From NCBI GenBank assembly GCA_043822925.1, contig JBDRBF010000029.1, positions 1-14,885 on the forward strand: DNA of 14,885 bases, read 5' to 3'. The position numbers and the translations under genes were made by a program. This DNA is from a bacterium (GTDB taxonomy: Bacteria; Babelota; Babeliae; Babelales; RVW-14). A model generated the notes under the pieces. The model did not search any database and was not told the DNA's origin. It worked only from the letters and a program-made list of their open reading frames with translations. This document shows positions 1 through 13,919 of the stretch, in pieces (positions within the stretch are counted from its first letter, which is position 1; every line of letters starts with the position of its first letter).

Positions 1-333
1 TTGTTATTTCAGTTAACTTATTAAACAAAAGACAAAGCGCTTTTTCATCAGCGTCAATTAGACTTATACTGGGATTTTCATTGAACTCTTTTAATTTTAT
101 TTCCTTCTTCTTTCCAGAACCCGCCGGCCCAGAAAGCCCGCTAATTCCCCACGCACCTCACCAAACTTCTCGGCCAACGAAACATACTTACCCTTCAACA
201 CTGTCAGCGATTTTGTTAAACTACCGACCTGCGCCGTAAGATCTGCTTTAAGCGCCGGCAGCATAAAAATAAAGCCCAAAACACAAAGCACCTGGCGTAC
301 AAGAACTTGACGCACCACAAAACCATTCTTCAC
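1..333 (-). pseudogene. Exported protein with the shared N-terminal helix, apparently frameshifted near 137-139. ORF 97..333 is the 5' part; a second frame stays open from 157 to the window edge.
   Basis: GTG start at 333 with GAGG upstream. Hydrophobic signal peptide ending LKA, then DLTAQVGSLTKSLTVLKGKYVSLAEKFGEVRGELAG. The annotated frame stops at 97-99, but the -1 frame reads LSGPAGSGKKKEIKLKEFNENPSISLIDADEKALCLLFNKLTEIT without a stop to position 1. It could instead be an intact 78-aa protein or a sequencing error. Confidence 0.55.
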
Positions 334-1387: not shown

Positions 1388-3322
1388 CTAATGTTTTGAC
1401 CATCCCCCATCTTTAACAAGCTTGCCCCATTTCTTAAAAGTTGCGTTCACTTTAAAATCATCAAAAGATGCATGCTCGCCTATTTTTTCAAGAACAGCAA
1501 AACCACCATTATTCTTAACTTGAGATACTGCAACTTGCCCGTTAATATTATTTATTCGTTGCCATTCATACAAAATAAGTTCTATCGACTCATCTTTTAT
1601 TAATTGATTTCGTTCTGACTTTCGTTCTTTATCAAAGAAAAATAAAAGAGCCTCTTTATTAAGTGTTTTTTCAAACATGGGAAATAACACGTCATTAATA
1701 AGTTTTCCACATGGTTCAGCAGCTATTCCTTGTAAATTTACATCAAGAGCCGTAAAAAGATCCGCCTTCAACCCAGGATTGTCTTCACATGCCTTTATAT
1801 AAGCCTCGGCTGAACTCCACAGATAAATTTCCACATTATCAAACCATTCAGCAATAGCATAACACCCATGCATATAATAATGCTTTTCCTCTGTCGTTCC
1901 GAACACTTGCCCTGGAATTTTATATGTTTCTTTTGTCTCACAGTCAAAAAGGGAATCTCCGAGCTTTTTTAATTCACTTTTAAAGTCACCAAAACCCTCT
2001 TGTATCCATTTAACACCACAAGTCTCCATTGTTTTTATATAATCAAAAACATCTTTATAAGAGAGATCTATAAAATTTAATCTAAATGTTTTAAAACCTT
2101 TTTTTCTTAATTTTAAAAGAACCTGAAATACCGGCCTAAACTTTCCACTCGCAAAATCTGTAAAAACAAAGCGCTTATCTTTATCTTTAAATATCTCGTC
2201 TGTTTTCTCCGCCACATGATTTTCAAACAACTCCCGCACATAACCATATTCCATTGTCAAAGTATCAGGTTTATACGCAGATCTCGTAAATGGACACCAC
2301 TTTTGCGTGCATTCTTTTAATGCTCGTAAATAATACGGATCTTTGCCGTCAAAATTTTCTTCATTTCCAACGTTCTCAATTTCCGTAAAAAATGTATCAA
2401 AAAATGTATTTATATACGGCGTCTTAATCTCTATTTTATTTTCGACTGGAAATGTCCAGCCTTCAAACTCAGAATCTTCTCTAAACTTATCATAAAAAGT
2501 TTTGTATATTCCTAGTGTTTTTTTAGCGGATTCTTTACCAAGTTCTAAATCAGTCTTAAAAACCAATTTTGCGCCAACATAAACTTCTTCCTTCACGCCC
2601 CCTTTTTCTTCGATTCCTTTAAATAGTTTATCGATGCGAACCCGAGGCATCGTTTTGTCTTTTTCTTCTCCAAGTCGCCTCTTTCTTTCTTCCTCTCTTT
2701 TTCTCGCTTCTTCTTCTTCTATTCGATCAGCCTCTTTCCAATACGGCTTTGAAGTTTCAAGTTCGAGTTTACGCCTTAAATCATCAAGATTTCCTAATAA
2801 CTTATCACAAGCAGGTTTCAATTTTTCATCATCTAGGAAGAGGCTAAACCATTGAACATTATAATATCCCGGTATTGTGTAGTTTAAAAAACTTTTAATG
2901 ACACCTCTGCTTGGTTTTTCTTTTGCTAATTCTATGCCTACATCTATAAATAGTTTTTTAAATTTATCTGGCCACCAATCGTTATTAATAGCCATCATCT
3001 GTCGTTTTTGGGTCCCTTGGGCATCGTTAGGCAAGTTTTCAACAGCATCTTGAATTGTTTTTATCGCCGAATCCATATCTGTTACTTCAAGCAAGTCTTT
3101 CTTGCCCGCAAGATTACCCTTAACCGTGTTCAAATTAGTCGCCAAAAGTATAAGTTTAGTTTTAAGTTGCGTTAAAGAGGCTTGAAGTTTGCCAATTTGC
3201 TCAGGCAAGTCAGCTTGCAAGCATGTTTGCCCACCAAAAATAAAGAGAAAACACAAAACAATAAAAATGTATTTTTTTGAATGATCGTACAGGTCAATAT
3301 GCGAATTGATTGAACATTTCAT
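1388..3322 (-). CDS. Exported hypothetical protein (644 aa): signal peptide, shared N-terminal helix, charged linker, C-terminal class I SAM-methyltransferase-like domain
   Basis: Long ORF. Signal peptide ending CLQA; shared helix aa 38-73; E/R/K-rich stretch EEEEARKREEERKRR. FVFTDFASG (motif I-like, D389) is followed by a helix and RLNFID (acidic end of beta2, D419), and later KADLFTALD. The function call is tentative. Confidence 0.8.
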   Translation of the reverse strand: MKCSINSHIDLYDHSKKYIFIVLCFLFIFGGQTCLQADLPEQIGKLQASLTQLKTKLILLATNLNTVKGNLAGKKDLLEVTDMDSAIKTIQDAVENLPNDAQGTQKRQMMAINNDWWPDKFKKLFIDVGIELAKEKPSRGVIKSFLNYTIPGYYNVQWFSLFLDDEKLKPACDKLLGNLDDLRRKLELETSKPYWKEADRIEEEEARKREEERKRRLGEEKDKTMPRVRIDKLFKGIEEKGGVKEEVYVGAKLVFKTDLELGKESAKKTLGIYKTFYDKFREDSEFEGWTFPVENKIEIKTPYINTFFDTFFTEIENVGNEENFDGKDPYYLRALKECTQKWCPFTRSAYKPDTLTMEYGYVRELFENHVAEKTDEIFKDKDKRFVFTDFASGKFRPVFQVLLKLRKKGFKTFRLNFIDLSYKDVFDYIKTMETCGVKWIQEGFGDFKSELKKLGDSLFDCETKETYKIPGQVFGTTEEKHYYMHGCYAIAEWFDNVEIYLWSSAEAYIKACEDNPGLKADLFTALDVNLQGIAAEPCGKLINDVLFPMFEKTLNKEALLFFFDKERKSERNQLIKDESIELILYEWQRINNINGQVAVSQVKNNGGFAVLEKIGEHASFDDFKVNATFKKWGKLVKDGGWSKH

Positions 3323-3463
3323 AACAAAGCCCCCCGGCTTAACAAGTATCCCCTATTTTCAGCACCACTCACGCATGCAAAGCCAATATCTGTTTTATAT
3401 TAATAGATTACGTTGGATGGATAGATAAATTCAAGAACAAGAGAAATTGGGGGAATTTGGACT

Positions 3464-3490
3464 TGGATCCCAGATCACGTCTGGGATGAC
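3464..3490. repeat. 27-bp palindromic intergenic repeat (reverse complement GTCATCCCAGACGTGATCTGGGATCCA)
   Basis: Stem ATCCCAGA/TCTGGGAT with a 5-nt loop. A near-identical interrupted copy lies at 9085-9144. Confidence 0.85.
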
Positions 3491-3540
3491 AAAATAAAAA
3501 CAAGCGCCTGTATACGGGCTCCGAGTTATTTCACAAACTA

Positions 3541-3570
3541 TTGCACTCAAAAACTTAAATTATCCATACT
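3541..3570 (+). promoter_or_regulatory. Putative sigma70-type promoter TTGCAC-18-CATACT for the 381-aa gene
   Basis: Hexamers at 3541-3546 and 3565-3570. GGAGG RBS at 3611-3615 before GTG 3622. A 10-bp palindrome TAGTGCACTA lies at 3587-3596. Confidence 0.5.
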
Positions 3571-3621
3571 GAAAACAATAAAACACTAGTGCACTAAAAT
3601 ACTGATACACGGAGGGACGCT

Positions 3622-4767
3622 GTGTTAGTCAAAACAATTAATAAAAAATTTTCTTGGTCCAAAACGGTCAATAAAAGCCAGTTAATACTGTTTCTCTTAA
3701 TATTTTTTATTACTTTTTTACCTAATCAACAATGTCTATATGCAGCCAAAGAACCACTCACCACAAATGTTAACCAACTGACCCAGTCTTTAACTCTTCT
3801 GCGCAATAAATTAATAGAACTTGCTACACAGTTACAAAAAACAAAAGACGCTTTCGGAGAAGAAGAACTCGCCTCAAAAACTTTTTTTGGACAGATTTTA
3901 GTAAATAAGGGAGCCGTAGAACAAGAAGACACTGTTAATAATACAAAATTTTATAAAATAAAAGTACTCGCTCAAAACGGAAATCAACCTAACTACAATA
4001 CCCACGGAGCACAAGAACTTGACGCGCTCAAAAAAGGGTACGGCTGCAGCTTCCACGCACAAAAAAATGCACTCTATATTTGCAAAATACTCTTAGAACA
4101 GGGAGACATCAATACAAACAGAGAAGCACTCTCTTCAGTGCCAATTTTTTTACATCTCTTTGAAGCGCCACTCAAAACGCTGCTTCCCCCTGAAACGAAA
4201 AGCACAGAAAAAACATATTGGAAATATAGATGGCCAAATGACAGAGGCGCCCAATCATGGTTCCCTGTATCAAGCGCTTTTCGCGTAAAACTGCCCCATT
4301 TAAGCGTGGTAAAAAAATGGTGGGATCTCTCCAAGCACGGCCCACCCGCAACAGAAAAATCAGAAATAGATAATCTCATAGAAAAGATTAAAGAAGGCCA
4401 AGCCCTGGCCCCAGACGAAGCCTCAATTAAGATAACAAAAAACATAAAAGTTATTCAAGCCGTTCCATACATTCTCTCGAACTCATATGCAACAGAGAGA
4501 AAAAAAAATTTTTATCCACCATTACAAAACGAAGATATAAATAAAAGCAAAGAAGCACTTAAAGATGCAAAAGAAAAACTCAAAAAGAATAAATCACTTC
4601 TCATGCCACTACTCATCTCGTGGGAACATGTTGAAGGTAGACACTGGGTTGCCGTTATTATTAATAAAATTGATGAAAAATTCGAAATATTTTATGCAGA
4701 CTCGTGGGTTGGAAGCCACCCCTTAGATAGAATAACCCCTCTCATTAAACATCTCACTGACAATTAA
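3622..4767 (+). CDS. Exported hypothetical protein (381 aa): signal peptide, shared N-terminal helix, putative papain-fold cysteine protease (Josephin/deubiquitinase-like)
   Basis: GGAGG RBS. Signal peptide ending CLYA; shared helix aa 45-79. GCSFHAQKN (C142) precedes HWVAVII (H341) and FEIFYADS (D360), in Cys-His-Asp order. Confidence 0.8.
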   Translation: MLVKTINKKFSWSKTVNKSQLILFLLIFFITFLPNQQCLYAAKEPLTTNVNQLTQSLTLLRNKLIELATQLQKTKDAFGEEELASKTFFGQILVNKGAVEQEDTVNNTKFYKIKVLAQNGNQPNYNTHGAQELDALKKGYGCSFHAQKNALYICKILLEQGDINTNREALSSVPIFLHLFEAPLKTLLPPETKSTEKTYWKYRWPNDRGAQSWFPVSSAFRVKLPHLSVVKKWWDLSKHGPPATEKSEIDNLIEKIKEGQALAPDEASIKITKNIKVIQAVPYILSNSYATERKKNFYPPLQNEDINKSKEALKDAKEKLKKNKSLLMPLLISWEHVEGRHWVAVIINKIDEKFEIFYADSWVGSHPLDRITPLIKHLTDN

Positions 4768-4771
4768 CTTT

Positions 4772-5521
4772 TTATTCCCCAAAAAGATCTTTTAAAAAAT
4801 CTGGGAGCATGCGCCAAAACATAGCGCCGATATCGTTTACTGCTTCTGGGGTTGCCCACGGCCCAGGCTTTGGGCCAGCACCAGGCTTGCCATAAGAAGA
4901 ACTGTTTTGAGCCGCACTATTTTGAGAAATATCACCATGAACAGGTGTGCAATATTGGGTCTTTAATTCAAAAAAACGAGCATCGTATTTTTCACCGACA
5001 TCTTTGTCATCTAAAATAATTACATTTTCTTGGTTACGCTGGGCTGATTTTGTCCAATTAAAAGATCCGGTCCACGTTGTACCATCAATTATCGCAAACT
5101 TATTATGCATAAGCGGCTCAGACCCGCCAAAGCCTTTTGATGTATCATGAGAATGATACTCAAAAACCTGAACACCATTGCCCCTCATATACGCACCTTT
5201 ACCATACGAGCTATCAACAGAAATTTTATCTGTTACTACTTGCACGTCAACACCGCGTTTTTTGGCATTAATTAACGCATCAGCAATATGCTTATCAGTA
5301 ATCATGTATACAGCTGCGTGAATTTTCTTCTGTGCCCCATTTATCATAGAAATAAGCATGGTTGCTGGATGGTCTTTTGGGGAAAATAAAACAATAGGCG
5401 AAGTGGCCAGTCCAAACGATCCCCAAGACAAATAAACTAAAACAAAAAATACTGTTTTTGTTAAACGAAAAAATACTTTTAAATGCTTTTTTATGCCAAA
5501 AGAAAATGTCATATATACCAA
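4772..5521 (-). CDS. Phospholipase D / Nuc-like (PLD6/Zucchini-type) single-HKD enzyme with N-terminal hydrophobic segment
   Basis: Motifs FSPKD, IHAAVYMITD, ALINAKKRGVDVQVVTD, MHNKFAIIDG (HxKxxxxD), WTGSFNWT and NQEN. The start may be ATG 5512 rather than TTG 5521. Confidence 0.92.
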   Translation of the reverse strand: MVYMTFSFGIKKHLKVFFRLTKTVFFVLVYLSWGSFGLATSPIVLFSPKDHPATMLISMINGAQKKIHAAVYMITDKHIADALINAKKRGVDVQVVTDKISVDSSYGKGAYMRGNGVQVFEYHSHDTSKGFGGSEPLMHNKFAIIDGTTWTGSFNWTKSAQRNQENVIILDDKDVGEKYDARFFELKTQYCTPVHGDISQNSAAQNSSSYGKPGAGPKPGPWATPEAVNDIGAMFWRMLPDFLKDLFGE

Positions 5522-6211: not shown

Positions 6212-9079
6212 TCACATCTTGAATCGTAATTCTACTTCAGAACCAATCTCACCACGCTGGTCTTTGACGAATTTAAGATTAATGTCATCAGAAAGTAGAT
6301 ATTCGACCTGGAAACCAAAGTCGTCTTGTAAATCAAAATTCTTTTGGATTTGGGCATGAAGTTGCTTGCCCAAATCTACAGATATGACCCCTTTGATGCC
6401 TCCACGTCCAGACTGATCAATAAAATTTGGCGTAATTTGAACATATTTTAATGGTCGAGCCAGTTTTTCAAAAAATGCATTTGCTTTGGGAACTACTTTG
6501 TTATTACCCAAAAGAAGTAAGTGCAAATTCTGCATGATCATAGAAGACAGATTTGTTTGCAACGTTGCATTTTCTGACCCGGCCAAAATTAATCCCAAAA
6601 CTTGCTCTTCACGCAACGTCGGAGAAGATTCAAGCAAAATATTCGGCTTCTGCAAAGAACCAGTCGCCTGCAAACTTACGGTATATTTATTAATTCTATT
6701 TTTTGCGATTAAATCAATTAATGGATCATGCAAGTGTGAAGGCACAAACTGAATTTTTCCATATTCAATATATAACTTGTTATCCAAAAACTGCAGAAAC
6801 CCGCCTTCTAAATTAATATAGCCCTCTAATCTTGGCGCTTCATCATTGTTTAAATATTCTATGAACATATCAAGATTTGCATGGGTATCAAGCACTCCTG
6901 TTTGTACGTGTATAGGCTTATCACAACGTACACGCAAGCTAAAATCGAAACCATTCTCATGAGAGCTACCAAACTTAAACGGCCGATCAACTAAGCTCTC
7001 TACATTATCTTGAGCAAACGGGTTATTTTTTAATAGCGACTTTTGTAATAAAATATCACCATCTATCCGAACAAGACTTCTTGAGTTCTTGGAACACATA
7101 AATGACCCACTAATAAACCCATAAAAGTCATTTTTCCAATTAACAAATAGATTCTTAAATTCAATAGGAGCATGCACTGAACTGAGTGCGTAATTATCAT
7201 CAAATTGTGCAACTATTTTGGCACTATGTGCATGCCCATTAAAAAAAGATACATAGGGTTCTTCTAATTCTATTTTTTTTGATACAGTATGAATTTTAAA
7301 ATTCGCTTTAAAGCTTTTAATTATATTACGAGCCTCAGGAACATACAAACGACCCTTATTTAACCAAACCGTTCCCGTTAACGTTTCAATATCATCTTGA
7401 TTAACGCTAATTCCAATATAAGAATGCGATCCTAAAACTGCTCTTTGATAATTTTGACTCAGTAACGACTGAATAAAAGAAAAATGAGCAACGCCAACAA
7501 GCTTTTTATGCTCAAGATCCCCAAGCTGCAAAGAGACGAGTTGTTTACTATTTTTCCAGCAAGAAAAACTTTGTAAGTATGGTTTTGCATTAAGCACCAC
7601 AACGCCATCATAACTTCCCTCAAGCGCCTGGCCATCAAAAGATAAGCTTTTTTTGTCTGGACCCAACGCAAAAGCACCATCTAAACTCATGTGATCGTCA
7701 GATATTTTCTTAAACGCTTTAACTTGATACTTGCCTGATATTTTCTCTTTCTTTCTCATTACCTGAACGCTCACTTTTTTAGGACCAATCTCCCATGATG
7801 ACGCTTTTTTCCCTTGGTCTCCAAAAAAGTTTAATGGTGCATTGTTTGATAAAATAAGCGATTGTTCATCTTTTTTTCTGTTCCAATTAAATTTACCTGT
7901 GCACGCTAGCCCCGGCTTATAAACAGCCGTAACACGTGAAGAAATAGTGTCACCATTTACAGATATCCCATTCAACCCAACTAAAGGCAAAGAAAAACAC
8001 CCATAACGTATCTTTTTAAGATACACATCTGCGTGCGCTGTAAAAACATCACACGCTCTTTGAATATCACACGTAATAGAACAAACACCCCCAAAATCTT
8101 TCGCTGGCGTTTCGTCTATATTGTTTAAAAGTGCATACGCACGATAGATAAGCGCAACCGGCATAGATCCAGAGATATTAATAATATCTTTCTGGAAAGC
8201 GACAGAAATATCAAGATCCCGGCTGGAAAGCCGAAATTTAGGACAATTATTACCCCAAGAACCATTAAGTACATGTGTATCTTTTTTAGGATCAAGAGGC
8301 TCTAAAACAAGAGGCTCTAAAGATGCCCGATCTTTTGTCACAGCTTGTTCTTTTTGTTGTACAATATGCGTAAAACGGTCAGCAATCGTAACGGTCCATG
8401 TCTGATCGAGATCCAATTTGTGAAAATTATTATTTCCAGCTAAATCAGCAATAAGTTTTTTGCCATTAAGAAAAACATCACCCCGCTTAGAAACTAAAGA
8501 TCCACGCCATTCTGGAGAACTTTGTGACAGCTTAGAATCTAAACGACGCAAAATAAAATCACCGACACAATCAAATGCTACTGTTTTATTTTTTTGTATA
8601 CTCTCTTGCCCTGTAACAATATTCGCTTGCACATTAATATTATGAACAGCTATCGATGCACATACAACTTTCAGTCCCTGAGAATCTGTATTAAAAATGT
8701 CCCCAAAATGGGTAATAATATCAAGCCCACTATTCGAATAGCCTGTTATAATCTTGCCATCATTAAACGTCAAACTTAGCGTTAACTGTTTTTTGAAAAA
8801 CAAATCAAATAAAGAAATATGAATATATGCTTTAGAAAATCCCCAATCACAATTTTGCTTACCTGACTTAATTATCCCATTTTCAAACTCTAAGTTTCTG
8901 GTAATAAAATTTATGCGTGCTTCTTGAACAATAATTTGTGCATTCCATTTTGTTTGTAAATAAGTAAGAATTTTTCTCGTCATAGCATTTTGAATACGGT
9001 TATTTGTTTGCAACACAAAAAATGCCGTAATTATGCTTATGATAAAAAATATAACTATATTTTCGAGTACTTTTCTCAT
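6212..9079 (-). CDS. tamB: Translocation and assembly module TamB-domain protein (AsmA-like)
   Basis: N-terminal membrane anchor and a long beta-rich body. The C-terminal TamB/DUF490 pattern reads PRLEGYINLEGG...YGKIQF...DPLIDLIA...VSLQATGSLQKPNILLESSPTLREEQVLGLILAG and ends in beta strands. Confidence 0.85.
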   Translation of the reverse strand: MRKVLENIVIFFIISIITAFFVLQTNNRIQNAMTRKILTYLQTKWNAQIIVQEARINFITRNLEFENGIIKSGKQNCDWGFSKAYIHISLFDLFFKKQLTLSLTFNDGKIITGYSNSGLDIITHFGDIFNTDSQGLKVVCASIAVHNINVQANIVTGQESIQKNKTVAFDCVGDFILRRLDSKLSQSSPEWRGSLVSKRGDVFLNGKKLIADLAGNNNFHKLDLDQTWTVTIADRFTHIVQQKEQAVTKDRASLEPLVLEPLDPKKDTHVLNGSWGNNCPKFRLSSRDLDISVAFQKDIINISGSMPVALIYRAYALLNNIDETPAKDFGGVCSITCDIQRACDVFTAHADVYLKKIRYGCFSLPLVGLNGISVNGDTISSRVTAVYKPGLACTGKFNWNRKKDEQSLILSNNAPLNFFGDQGKKASSWEIGPKKVSVQVMRKKEKISGKYQVKAFKKISDDHMSLDGAFALGPDKKSLSFDGQALEGSYDGVVVLNAKPYLQSFSCWKNSKQLVSLQLGDLEHKKLVGVAHFSFIQSLLSQNYQRAVLGSHSYIGISVNQDDIETLTGTVWLNKGRLYVPEARNIIKSFKANFKIHTVSKKIELEEPYVSFFNGHAHSAKIVAQFDDNYALSSVHAPIEFKNLFVNWKNDFYGFISGSFMCSKNSRSLVRIDGDILLQKSLLKNNPFAQDNVESLVDRPFKFGSSHENGFDFSLRVRCDKPIHVQTGVLDTHANLDMFIEYLNNDEAPRLEGYINLEGGFLQFLDNKLYIEYGKIQFVPSHLHDPLIDLIAKNRINKYTVSLQATGSLQKPNILLESSPTLREEQVLGLILAGSENATLQTNLSSMIMQNLHLLLLGNNKVVPKANAFFEKLARPLKYVQITPNFIDQSGRGGIKGVISVDLGKQLHAQIQKNFDLQDDFGFQVEYLLSDDINLKFVKDQRGEIGSEVELRFKM

Positions 9080-9156: not shown

Positions 9157-9711
9157 TTATTCCAGTCCCATTATTTCCCACTTCCCAGTACCCCAACGAT
9201 ACTTTCTCACACAGGCAACAGGCGACACAGAACAAGTAACTGCCCCCATAAATTTCTTATGCTTATCAGTTAAATATACAGTACCGGGGGACATTTTGCC
9301 ATCGGGTAAGCATATTGCACAAGAAACACCCCAATTCTCCTGAGAGTTTGACTGAAAAGTTACAGCCTGGCTAATTATTTGGTTTGGACTTGCCGGGGGA
9401 CCCTTTACCGTATCAATAAACCCAATATTTATAGGGTCACTGAGCTTATTTATACACGTTTTACCCCCAAGCCCAATATACGAATACGCATTTTGGCTTA
9501 CATCAAACGTAATTTTTTGAGTCTGCCCAGAAGCCATGGCTTTTTGCTGAACGTATAAAAAACCAATAACAAGCTTATTTAACTCAGAATTAAGCATATA
9601 ATCTGGTGATTTAATAAATAAAGGTGCAACCAAAGCACAGAGTGCAACAAAAACAGCCAAAACTACCATTAATTCGATAAGAGAGAACGCTTTTTTAAAA
9701 CTTTTACCCAT
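9157..9711 (-). CDS. Prepilin-type N-terminal cleavage/methylation protein (GspH/FimT-like minor pseudopilin)
   Basis: MGKSFKKA|FSLIELMVVLAV: class III signal with Glu+5 and a hydrophobic helix. The helix and strand QKAMASGQTQKITF and DGKMSPGTVYL are GspH/FimT-like. Confidence 0.85.
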   Translation of the reverse strand: MGKSFKKAFSLIELMVVLAVFVALCALVAPLFIKSPDYMLNSELNKLVIGFLYVQQKAMASGQTQKITFDVSQNAYSYIGLGGKTCINKLSDPINIGFIDTVKGPPASPNQIISQAVTFQSNSQENWGVSCAICLPDGKMSPGTVYLTDKHKKFMGAVTCSVSPVACVRKYRWGTGKWEIMGLE

Positions 9712-12761: not shown

Positions 12762-13919
12762 ATGAATTTTATTAAACGTTTTTTTAACAAACCAACCCAA
12801 AGCTTCTTTCTTTTTGGCCCGCGCGGGACCGGAAAATCAACCCTCGTTAAAGCGTGCTATCACAATGCACTCTGGATAGATCTTCTGAATCCAGAAACAC
12901 TCCGCAGTTTCAGCGCACGGCCAGAACGCCTATTTGAGTTTGTTGAAGCAAACCCAAACAAAAAAACAGTCGTCATCGATGAAGTACAAAAAGTACCTTC
13001 GCTTTCGAGTGTCGTACATGCACTTATAGAAAAGGACAAAACAGTGCAATATATTCTAACCGGCTCAAGCTCACGCAAACTCAAACAAATGCAAGGGGAC
13101 TTGCTTGCCGGACGAGCGCTCAAAAAACAACTCCACCCATTTATGGCTGCAGAACTCGGCAGCCTTTTTTCTCTAGAAAAGGCACTACAAATCGGCATGC
13201 TTCCCGTTCTTATGGAGGCACAAGATCCTGCGAGCGCACTACAGGCATATGTTGGGCTTTATCTAAAAGAAGAAATACAGGCCGAAGGCCTTGTAAGAAA
13301 CCTGGAAAGCTTTTCCCGCTTTTTAGAAGTTATCAGCTTTTCACATGCATCAACACTTAACGTCACGAATATATCCAGAGAATGCGAAGTTAAAAGAAAA
13401 ACAGTAGAAAACTATATCGAAATTTTAGATGAACTACTCTTAACCTACAGTCTTCCTGTTTTTACCAAACGCGCAAAGCGCGATCTCAGTTCCCATCCTA
13501 AGTTTTATCTGTTCGATTCTGGTGTTTTTAGAGCCCTGCGACCCAAGGGAATACTGGATAAAGTAGAAGAGATTGAGGGAGCCGCACTTGAGGGACTCAT
13601 TGTGCAACACCTAAAAACCTGGAACGACTACAGTACAGAAAATCACGACTTAGCCTTTTGGCGTACACGGTCAGGACTGGAAGTCGATGTTATTGTGTAC
13701 GGCCCGCTCGGGTTTTGGGCAATCGAAATAAAAAATGCGAAAAAAGTTCACTCAGTCGATATTAAACCACTTGAAGCATTCTTGGAAGATTATCCAATGG
13801 CAAAAGGCCTTCTTCTTTACCGTGGGCACGAACAGCTCATGATCAATAACATCTTATGCATGCCGTGCGACAAATTTCTTATGGACCTAAAACCAGATAG
13901 CCCATTATTGCCAGAATAG
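12762..13919 (+). CDS. AAA_14 ATPase with DUF4143 and C-terminal PD-(D/E)xK-like nuclease motif
   Basis: Walker A GPRGTGKS, Walker B VVIDEVQK, TGSS and LAGR. An HTH-like segment NVTNISRECEVKRKTVENYIEIL is followed by KFYLFDSG and EVDVI...AIEIK. Confidence 0.93.
   Translation: MNFIKRFFNKPTQSFFLFGPRGTGKSTLVKACYHNALWIDLLNPETLRSFSARPERLFEFVEANPNKKTVVIDEVQKVPSLSSVVHALIEKDKTVQYILTGSSSRKLKQMQGDLLAGRALKKQLHPFMAAELGSLFSLEKALQIGMLPVLMEAQDPASALQAYVGLYLKEEIQAEGLVRNLESFSRFLEVISFSHASTLNVTNISRECEVKRKTVENYIEILDELLLTYSLPVFTKRAKRDLSSHPKFYLFDSGVFRALRPKGILDKVEEIEGAALEGLIVQHLKTWNDYSTENHDLAFWRTRSGLEVDVIVYGPLGFWAIEIKNAKKVHSVDIKPLEAFLEDYPMAKGLLLYRGHEQLMINNILCMPCDKFLMDLKPDSPLLPE

Follow-up and report, generated by a model that had tools for sequence, protein, structure and literature searches.

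A predicted exported, Cys-first cysteine protease of Dependentiae appears to combine Josephin-like threading with a Ulp1-like His/Asp module

Cysteine deubiquitinases (DUBs) and ubiquitin-like proteases (ULPs) fall into only a few classes, and it is chiefly the sequence order of the catalytic residues that separates the papain-like clans CA and CE. The gene studied here, at 3622-4767 on the plus strand of one whole 14,885-bp contig (C29, referred to as the window), comes from a genome of Dependentiae, a phylum of protist parasites. As judged from its sequence, the encoded protein combines the CA/Josephin type of threading with a CE-type His/Asp module like that of Ulp1, Wolbachia CidB and RickCE. 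On balance, we read it as an exported, catalytically competent, Cys-first circular-permutation variant of the Ulp1-like fold that likely removes ubiquitin or a ubiquitin-like modifier (UBL) in the host.

Precedents for such re-threading exist. Passages of the study of EschOTU (Schubert et al. 2020, PMC7396840) point to a proposal, made by MEROPS and SCOP, of clans CA and CE being related by circular permutation. EschOTU itself is, like the protein described here, a bacterial papain-fold enzyme of DUB type whose residue order is opposite to that of the family it resembles by sequence, and its authors discuss there whether it might be intermediate between CA and CE or have arisen by a second permutation. 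Our family mirrors it: EschOTU is OTU-like and His-first, whereas the present family is CE-like and Cys-first. The same text places the acidic or amide triad residue of OTU enzymes two positions past the His, on the same strand, and a section of another paper (PMC10318531) states that in the papain-like superfamily the helix is commonly permuted, either alone or together with the first strand. Bacterial Josephin-like enzymes are presented as ubiquitin C-terminal clippases in parts of a preprint by Hermanns et al. (bioRxiv 10.1101/2024.07.24.604956), which also give a His-to-Asp spacing of 16 for PcJOS, PaJOS and BpJOS and describe an aromatic gatekeeper after the catalytic His that DUBs use against Gly-75 of ubiquitin. 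Within the literature searched, neither a Cys-first family of CE-like type nor any DUB of Dependentiae was described.

The open reading frame (ORF) opens with GTG and encodes 381 aa plus a stop. An earlier note on this DNA had named its likely catalytic residues, and a script run on the ORF confirmed these positions to the nucleotide: Q118 (in VLAQ) at 3973-3975, C142 (GYGCSFHAQKN) at 4045-4047, H341 (GRHWVAVII) at 4642-4644, and D360 (FYADSW) at 4699-4701, all on the plus strand. The Cys-first order with about 200 aa between Cys and His also stood, the distance from C142 to H341 being 199 residues. Cysteines occur only at positions 38, 142 and 154; because none follows H341, the canonical CE arrangement (His, Asp/Asn, Gln, Cys) is excluded, and the Gln and Cys precede the His and Asp instead, as they do in all 19 relatives inspected. 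This is the order of Josephins (Gln, Cys...His...Asp/Asn).

The putative triad is conserved in homologs that were not picked by motif. Our first alignment (A1) holds 10 sequences—the query, both domains of a paralog from the same genome, and seven proteins of other genomes retrieved by an exhaustive HMMER search—and its invariant columns are V115, C142, N149, W213, H341 and D360. Likewise, the 19 best loci in other genomes, found by profile rather than by motif, all carry Gln...Cys-Gly...Asn upstream of H[W/A]...D/N in the matched ORF (seen by regular expression in 16 and by eye in three), with Asn replacing Asp in one. In a 40-sequence alignment (A2), C142, N149 and H341 are invariant and Q118, W342, D360 and S361 are present in at least 90% of rows, although most of these rows were chosen by regular expressions demanding those very residues, so that this conservation is not independent evidence. 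Across relatives the Cys helix follows the pattern C-[GS]-x2-[AS]-x2-N. The Cys-to-His distance varies from 123 to 420 residues, marking the region between them as a variable insert. In compact relatives only four to five residues separate the Gln (position -5 or -6) from the Cys, as opposed to a 23-residue insertion in the query. As judged from these alignments, the motif set exceeds chance, and the protein is probably a real, active papain-fold cysteine protease of an unnamed family.

Where sequence comparison gave significant matches, these were to the CE clan only. Pfam assigned Peptidase_C48 (PF02902) to residues 292-375 with 25.9 bits (E 1e-5; curated cut-off 20.7), the match spanning only profile positions 51-134 of 217, that is, the His/Asp part. 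Among relatives the same profile matched four of the 10 A1 sequences (E ≤ 1) and two of the 40 in A2 (E ≤ 0.01), and a family member from Pseudomonadota likewise exceeded the cut-off (22.7 bits). Searched with the A2 profile, the DUB domain of Wolbachia CidB (7fiu) was retrieved at E 1.5e-7 in two stretches of swapped order: profile positions 168-228 (HW...ADS) aligned without gaps to chain residues 105-159 (23.4 bits), and positions 27-68 (V.QQ.DG.NCG.....N) aligned in register to residues 168-204 (9.5 bits). RickCE (5ham) came next, at E 0.008 and with the same swapped layout. What the family has in common with CidB, RickCE and other CE/Ulp1 enzymes is xHW(I/V)xxVxxK...(Y/F)xxADS, with the Asp at +19 from the His on the next strand, a spacing equal to that in the CidB alignment and within the 17-19 or so residues expected in the CE clan. 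Further points of likeness are the aromatic side chain directly following the His, the Asn at +7 from the Cys and, in compact relatives, the Gln that precedes Cys-Gly by five or six positions. In contrast, the strand-Gln-Cys-helix unit precedes the His/Asp sheet here and follows it in CE enzymes. The position two past the His, where OTUs have their acid, is occupied by V343, and the conserved acid is D360.

Several results on the Cys half weigh against the permutation reading, as this part of the protein gives statistical support to neither a permuted CE enzyme nor a Josephin. Of 34 Cys segments searched alone against Pfam, one matched C48, at E 0.21; a profile of the segment retrieved no CE chain from the PDB; its comparison by hhalign gave P 0.24; and a hidden Markov model (HMM) of the Cys core scored six canonical CE proteins of the phylum no better than shuffles. 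Taken alone, the segment matched neither CE nor Josephin significantly.

The rival that fares best, although we consider it rather unlikely, is that the protein is a true but highly divergent Josephin (MJD), akin to the DUBs and clippases of Simkania, Burkholderia and Parachlamydia, and that its CE likeness merely reflects the HW...[DN]S motif common to both. The residue order agrees with this alternative, and so does an ambiguity in the motif itself. Among the 261 species genomes of our phylum sample (0.7-1.9 Mb), tandem relatives in two, G124 and G125, touch the His/Asn region of the Josephin profile with 22.8 and 21.4 bits, both below the cut-off; the HW...[DN]S stretch could thus belong to either CE or Josephin. 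The best Josephin match of the phylum (22.8 bits) is the His region of a 352-aa ORF in G124, and none of the 261 genomes exceeded the cut-off. This ORF and a 465-aa neighbor form the tandem on contig C32 of G124 (L029:1471-2526 and L029:2-1396, both minus strand); they contain long poly-Ser tracts and carry HCGYYA[VL]F and GHWIT.GA.K...FDS. For the query, Pfam Josephin (PF02099) yielded 15.9 bits against a cut-off of 26, in an alignment over residues 50-256 that does not reach H341. No Josephin chain appeared at E ≤ 10 in four PDB searches (with the query, A1, A2 and a third alignment, A3), a result with which distant kinship is still compatible. No significant sequence or profile match linked the family to the bacterial Josephin-like DUBs BpJOS (9f5t) and PcJOS (9fn4) or to eukaryotic Josephins. 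The His-to-Asp spacing of 19 differs from the 16 of the bacterial enzymes, and bacterial Josephins have 97-122 residues between Cys and His, versus 199 in the query and 123-420 in its relatives. Identity of the family with PcJOS was ruled out separately, its Parachlamydia member having no PDB match. Of the earlier note's suggestion of a Josephin-like or permuted CE enzyme, the fold, the conservation of the triad and the dichotomy itself hold, while membership in the Josephin family fell short at 15.9 versus 26 bits. Between a divergent Josephin and a permuted, Cys-first form of the Ulp1-like fold we favor the latter, because significant sequence matches were to CE enzymes only, because EschOTU provides a mirror precedent, and because permutation is common in the papain-like superfamily. 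That evolution ran in the direction of permutation is what we infer from this pattern.

Structure models are consistent with a papain-like enzyme. AlphaFold2 (AF2) modeled the full-length protein with a pLDDT of 76.8 and a pTM of 0.74, and the domain alone (residues 88-381, on A2) with 81.2 and 0.87; the domain was modeled separately because the N-terminal coiled coil dominated a wide structure search with the full-length model. Both models agree on a hairpin, a loop, the Cys helix, a helical insert, a sheet and a final helix. The stretch at 3916-3975 comprises the beta-hairpin (residues 99-113, strands 99-105 and 108-113), which leads to V115 and to Q118, the predicted oxyanion-hole Gln, and is followed by the 23-residue insertion between Q118 and C142 (3976-4044), which the alignments A1 and A3 support and which is modeled with low confidence (pLDDT blocks 56-63). 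Next comes the nucleophile helix (142-157; 4045-4092), with C142 as its first residue and N149 invariant, and then the variable, mostly helical insert of about 165 residues (4093-4593), a candidate substrate-binding subdomain. A three-stranded antiparallel sheet (325-336, 339-350, 353-359; 4594-4704), seen in both models, has H341, with the aromatic W342 after it, at the start of its second strand and D360-S361 directly past its third, and the C-terminal helix (368-379; 4723-4758) completes the domain; all these elements are on the plus strand. The layout, with the Cys at a helix N-terminus and the His and Asp on adjacent strands, is papain-like in the models, and C142, H341 and D360 would form a triad in three dimensions.

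In both models, then, C142 heads its helix while the other two residues of the putative triad, H341 and D360, are carried by neighboring strands. Foldseek against the PDB returned no match at E ≤ 0.001 with either model. The wider list of structural matches consists almost wholly of papain-like proteases, with DUBs and ULPs contributing many matches and most of the top ten, and CE-clan structures match the helices and sheet of the C-terminal part, aligning from about model residue 130 onward. Matches to Salmonella SpvD and VsdE (5lq6, 5lq7) and to the herpesvirus tegument USP and VTD proteases (2j7q, 8add) were not significant; in the alignment seen, SpvD lacks the Trp after the His, unlike the query.

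Put together, the conserved Trp next to the catalytic His, the four residues Gln, Cys, His and Asp, and a match list rich in DUBs would point to a C-terminal isopeptidase for ubiquitin or a UBL. In the mechanism we envisage, C142 at the helix N-terminus would act as nucleophile and H341 as general base, oriented by D360 on the neighboring strand, with Q118 supplying the oxyanion hole and W342 serving as the aromatic gatekeeper after the His that in DUBs and ULPs limits access to Gly-Gly-type C-termini. Most likely, the enzyme would strip eukaryotic host proteins of ubiquitin or of a ubiquitin-like modifier.

A word-index search with the query protein returned only itself (one of 3,723 candidates), and one with A2 seven proteins, none of them named. 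The exhaustive HMMER scan of 1.84 billion representatives recovered nine proteins at E ≤ 0.001, including the query and the paralog. Within the phylum, the A1 profile matched 41 of the 261 genomes, about 38 of which have the protease domain; in the three subtracted genomes (G124, G125, G151) the profile had matched an N-terminal tag only. With a degenerate DNA pattern for CGYHALKN, 34 loci were found among genomes sampled at one per species. Those with a matching His/Asp segment belong to Dependentiae/Babeliales, to five Parachlamydiales records, to one Pseudomonadota metagenome-assembled genome (MAG) and to one 'Epsilonproteobacteria' MAG, the remainder being chance or out-of-frame matches.

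The paralog mentioned above, an 806-aa protein encoded elsewhere in the same genome (L002:283-2700, plus strand, on contig C38), contains two protease domains separated by about 290 residues, which include an internal copy of the 36-aa tag described below. Its N-terminal copy is compact (VLVQGASHCGYHAIKN ... DKHWMGISFVKIKDKKYAFCFDS), and its C-terminal copy has inserts and shares 32% identity with the query. Relatives, too, have two-domain proteins, of about 745 aa (L011, P0013-P0015). Circular permutation classically proceeds through such tandem domains.

Beyond bacteria, Foldseek of the domain model against BFVD gave three matches at E ≤ 0.001 with probabilities of 0.99-1.00, but with root-mean-square deviations of 10.8-14.3 Å. 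They are large uncharacterized proteins of Klosneuvirus-type giant viruses: A0A1V0SFN0 (Hokovirus), A0A3G4ZWX5 (Edafosvirus) and A0A3G5ADB8_2 (Hyperionvirus). The feature neighbors in the ESM Atlas were Nucleocytoviricota proteins as well, at 0.82-0.84, under the lead level of 0.9. Viral contigs contained no match to the CGYHALKN DNA pattern and no relative of the paralog by tblastn. A link to giant viruses, drawn solely from the BFVD and ESM Atlas rows, would have the standing of a lead.

The N-terminus suggests how the protease might leave the cell. Residues 1-42 (3622-3747, plus strand) comprise a Lys-rich n-region, a hydrophobic core (L21-L33) and the sequence PNQQCLYA/AKE, with a helix at 18-32 in the full-length AF2 model, from which we infer a Sec signal or anchor. 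There follows a 36-aa amphipathic coiled-coil tag (residues 43-77; 3748-3852, plus strand; helix 36-78 in the model) with the consensus K..L..QI..L..SLT.LK.KLI.LAT.L..VK..L. An iterated HMM search of the 2,276 ORFs of the genome detected the tag in 27, behind an N-terminal signal in 13, at the extreme C-terminus in 10 and internally in four; a genome profile search counted 28 matches. Two further copies lie in the window (142-249 and 3110-3214, both minus strand), and examples from other contigs of the genome are C11:1820-1927, C20:28900-29004 and C35:7577-7684. Across the phylum sample the tag is present in 12 of 261 genomes: the source genome (G000), 10 of 34 others of the same GTDB family, and one of 226 outside it. 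Its cargo includes both protease paralogs, a ubiquitin-specific protease (USP)-type DUB, an ankyrin-rich protein of 1,309 aa and many orphans; its features suggest a lineage-specific device that sorts or anchors exported, effector-like proteins.

The USP-type DUB (540 aa; L005:13-1632, plus strand, equivalent to contig C35:6068-7690 of the source genome) matches Pfam UCH (PF00443) at E 3.4e-35 and bears the tag at its extreme C-terminus. The UCH match begins at profile position 60, and one TAA falls within the match at the 3′ end of the frame; the gene may be truncated, or the TAA may be the ORF's own stop. In a related genus, a 334-aa ORF (L036:808-1809, plus strand; contig C24 of G144) resembles, on visual inspection, a small USP-like protease (NWCWMVAALQCL ... 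HHRALVKYGGKWILFDS) and likewise has the coiled-coil tag at its end; combinations of tag and DUB therefore recur in the family.

The genome encodes three secretins and three T2SS-E-type ATPases, and neither VirB4 nor FHIPEP was found in it. The protease would be exported by Sec and then probably released in a secretin-dependent manner, implying secretion beyond the periplasm; delivery to the host appears plausible.

A second alternative is a papain-fold hydrolase or acyltransferase whose substrates are neither ubiquitin nor UBLs, such as a protease of the periplasm or surface that would degrade bacterial or host-derived proteins for nutrition, a YopJ-like acetyltransferase or a C39-like double-glycine leader peptidase. 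For the last of these, one of the 34 Cys segments matched Peptidase C39 (PF03412) at E 0.057, but the query protein has no C39 or ABC match and hence no fused ABC-transporter domain. More generally, a conserved aromatic residue next to the His, combined with the four residues Gln, Cys, His and Asp, is typical of DUB/ULP enzymes, these enzymes stand out among the structural matches, a bona fide USP domain of the genome bears the same export tag, and the family is, as far as seen, confined to bacteria living in or on eukaryotes. We regard this alternative as distinctly unlikely.

As to its setting, the protease gene is monocistronic and lies in a 1.52-Mb genome assembly of 86 contigs that is 92% complete. 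A Shine-Dalgarno-like GGAGGG, read from the sequence, occupies 3612-3617 on the plus strand, with positions 3618-3621 as the gap before the GTG (about 4-5 nt), and a promoter and terminator scan of 3250-5000 returned no plus-strand promoter-like site upstream of the gene (one site in total versus 4.2 expected). Upstream and divergent is a 644-aa orphan (1388-3322, minus strand). Downstream, a convergent PLD-like gene (4772-5521, minus strand; Pfam PLDc_2, E 3.3e-27) ends 4 nt from the protease stop, leaving no room for a missing C-terminal exon. Four studies contribute groundwater and biofilm runs whose contigs carry near-identical copies of the protease gene; no indels were seen among them, and no RNA run was listed as carrying the gene. 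Two runs have three differences in common (4341, 4344 and 4347), all at third codon positions and all synonymous. One contig of 2.3x depth (run X5) has T for A at 4729, turning codon 370 from AGA into TGA with loss of the last 12 residues (the C-terminal helix), possibly by assembly error.

That the gene is a decayed canonical CE (Ulp1) gene minus its C-terminal Gln/Cys part is hardly credible: the automatic Peptidase_C48 label would imply such a truncated, Cys-less, inactive remnant, and both the partial Pfam match and an end 21 residues past D360 agree with it, but the predicted nucleophile lies 199 residues upstream of the His within a Gln...Cys-Gly...Asn segment conserved in the query and in 19 of 19 relatives, many relatives likewise stop 14-40 residues past the Asp, no lost exon fits before the opposite-strand gene 4 nt away, and the upstream Cys segment, the gene's intactness in independent samples (only synonymous differences, in two of them) and the confident model (pTM 0.87) effectively refute a truncated pseudogene.

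Farther along the window are a TamB-family gene (6212-9079, minus strand), a gene with a prepilin-type N-terminal methylation motif (9157-9711, minus strand) and an AAA_14 + DUF4143 ATPase gene (12762-13919, plus strand), all by Pfam. Directly 3′ of the paralog, an ORF (L002:2916-3992, plus strand) opens with the P-loop GPRQSGKTT and resembles the AAA_14 + DUF4143 gene by eye; both protease paralogs may thus have a gene of this type nearby.

Going one step further, the family could be the reciprocal of EschOTU, that is, a CE lineage re-threaded Cys-first, or else a surviving intermediate, with Josephins and CE enzymes as permutants of one ancestor. It would then constitute a separate DUB/ULP effector class common to the protist-associated Dependentiae and Parachlamydiales and to Klosneuvirus-type giant viruses. 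The tandem proteins (806 aa and about 745 aa) would be relics of duplication, and the 36-aa tag would serve delivery in this lineage. This extended scenario is speculative, and we hold it to be possible rather than likely.

For the Cys-first permutation variant of the Ulp1-like fold that we favor, the implications concern both enzymes and organisms. A widespread family that is CE by sequence and CA/Josephin by threading bears on how the classes of cysteine DUBs and ULPs relate to one another, and it adds candidate enzymes with possibly unusual specificity. To our knowledge, almost no effectors of Dependentiae have been characterized. As a candidate effector of a new kind, one that would deconjugate ubiquitin or a ubiquitin-like modifier, the protease—with two paralogs and a USP-type DUB carrying the same tag in one genome—would offer a handle on how these bacteria manipulate their hosts.
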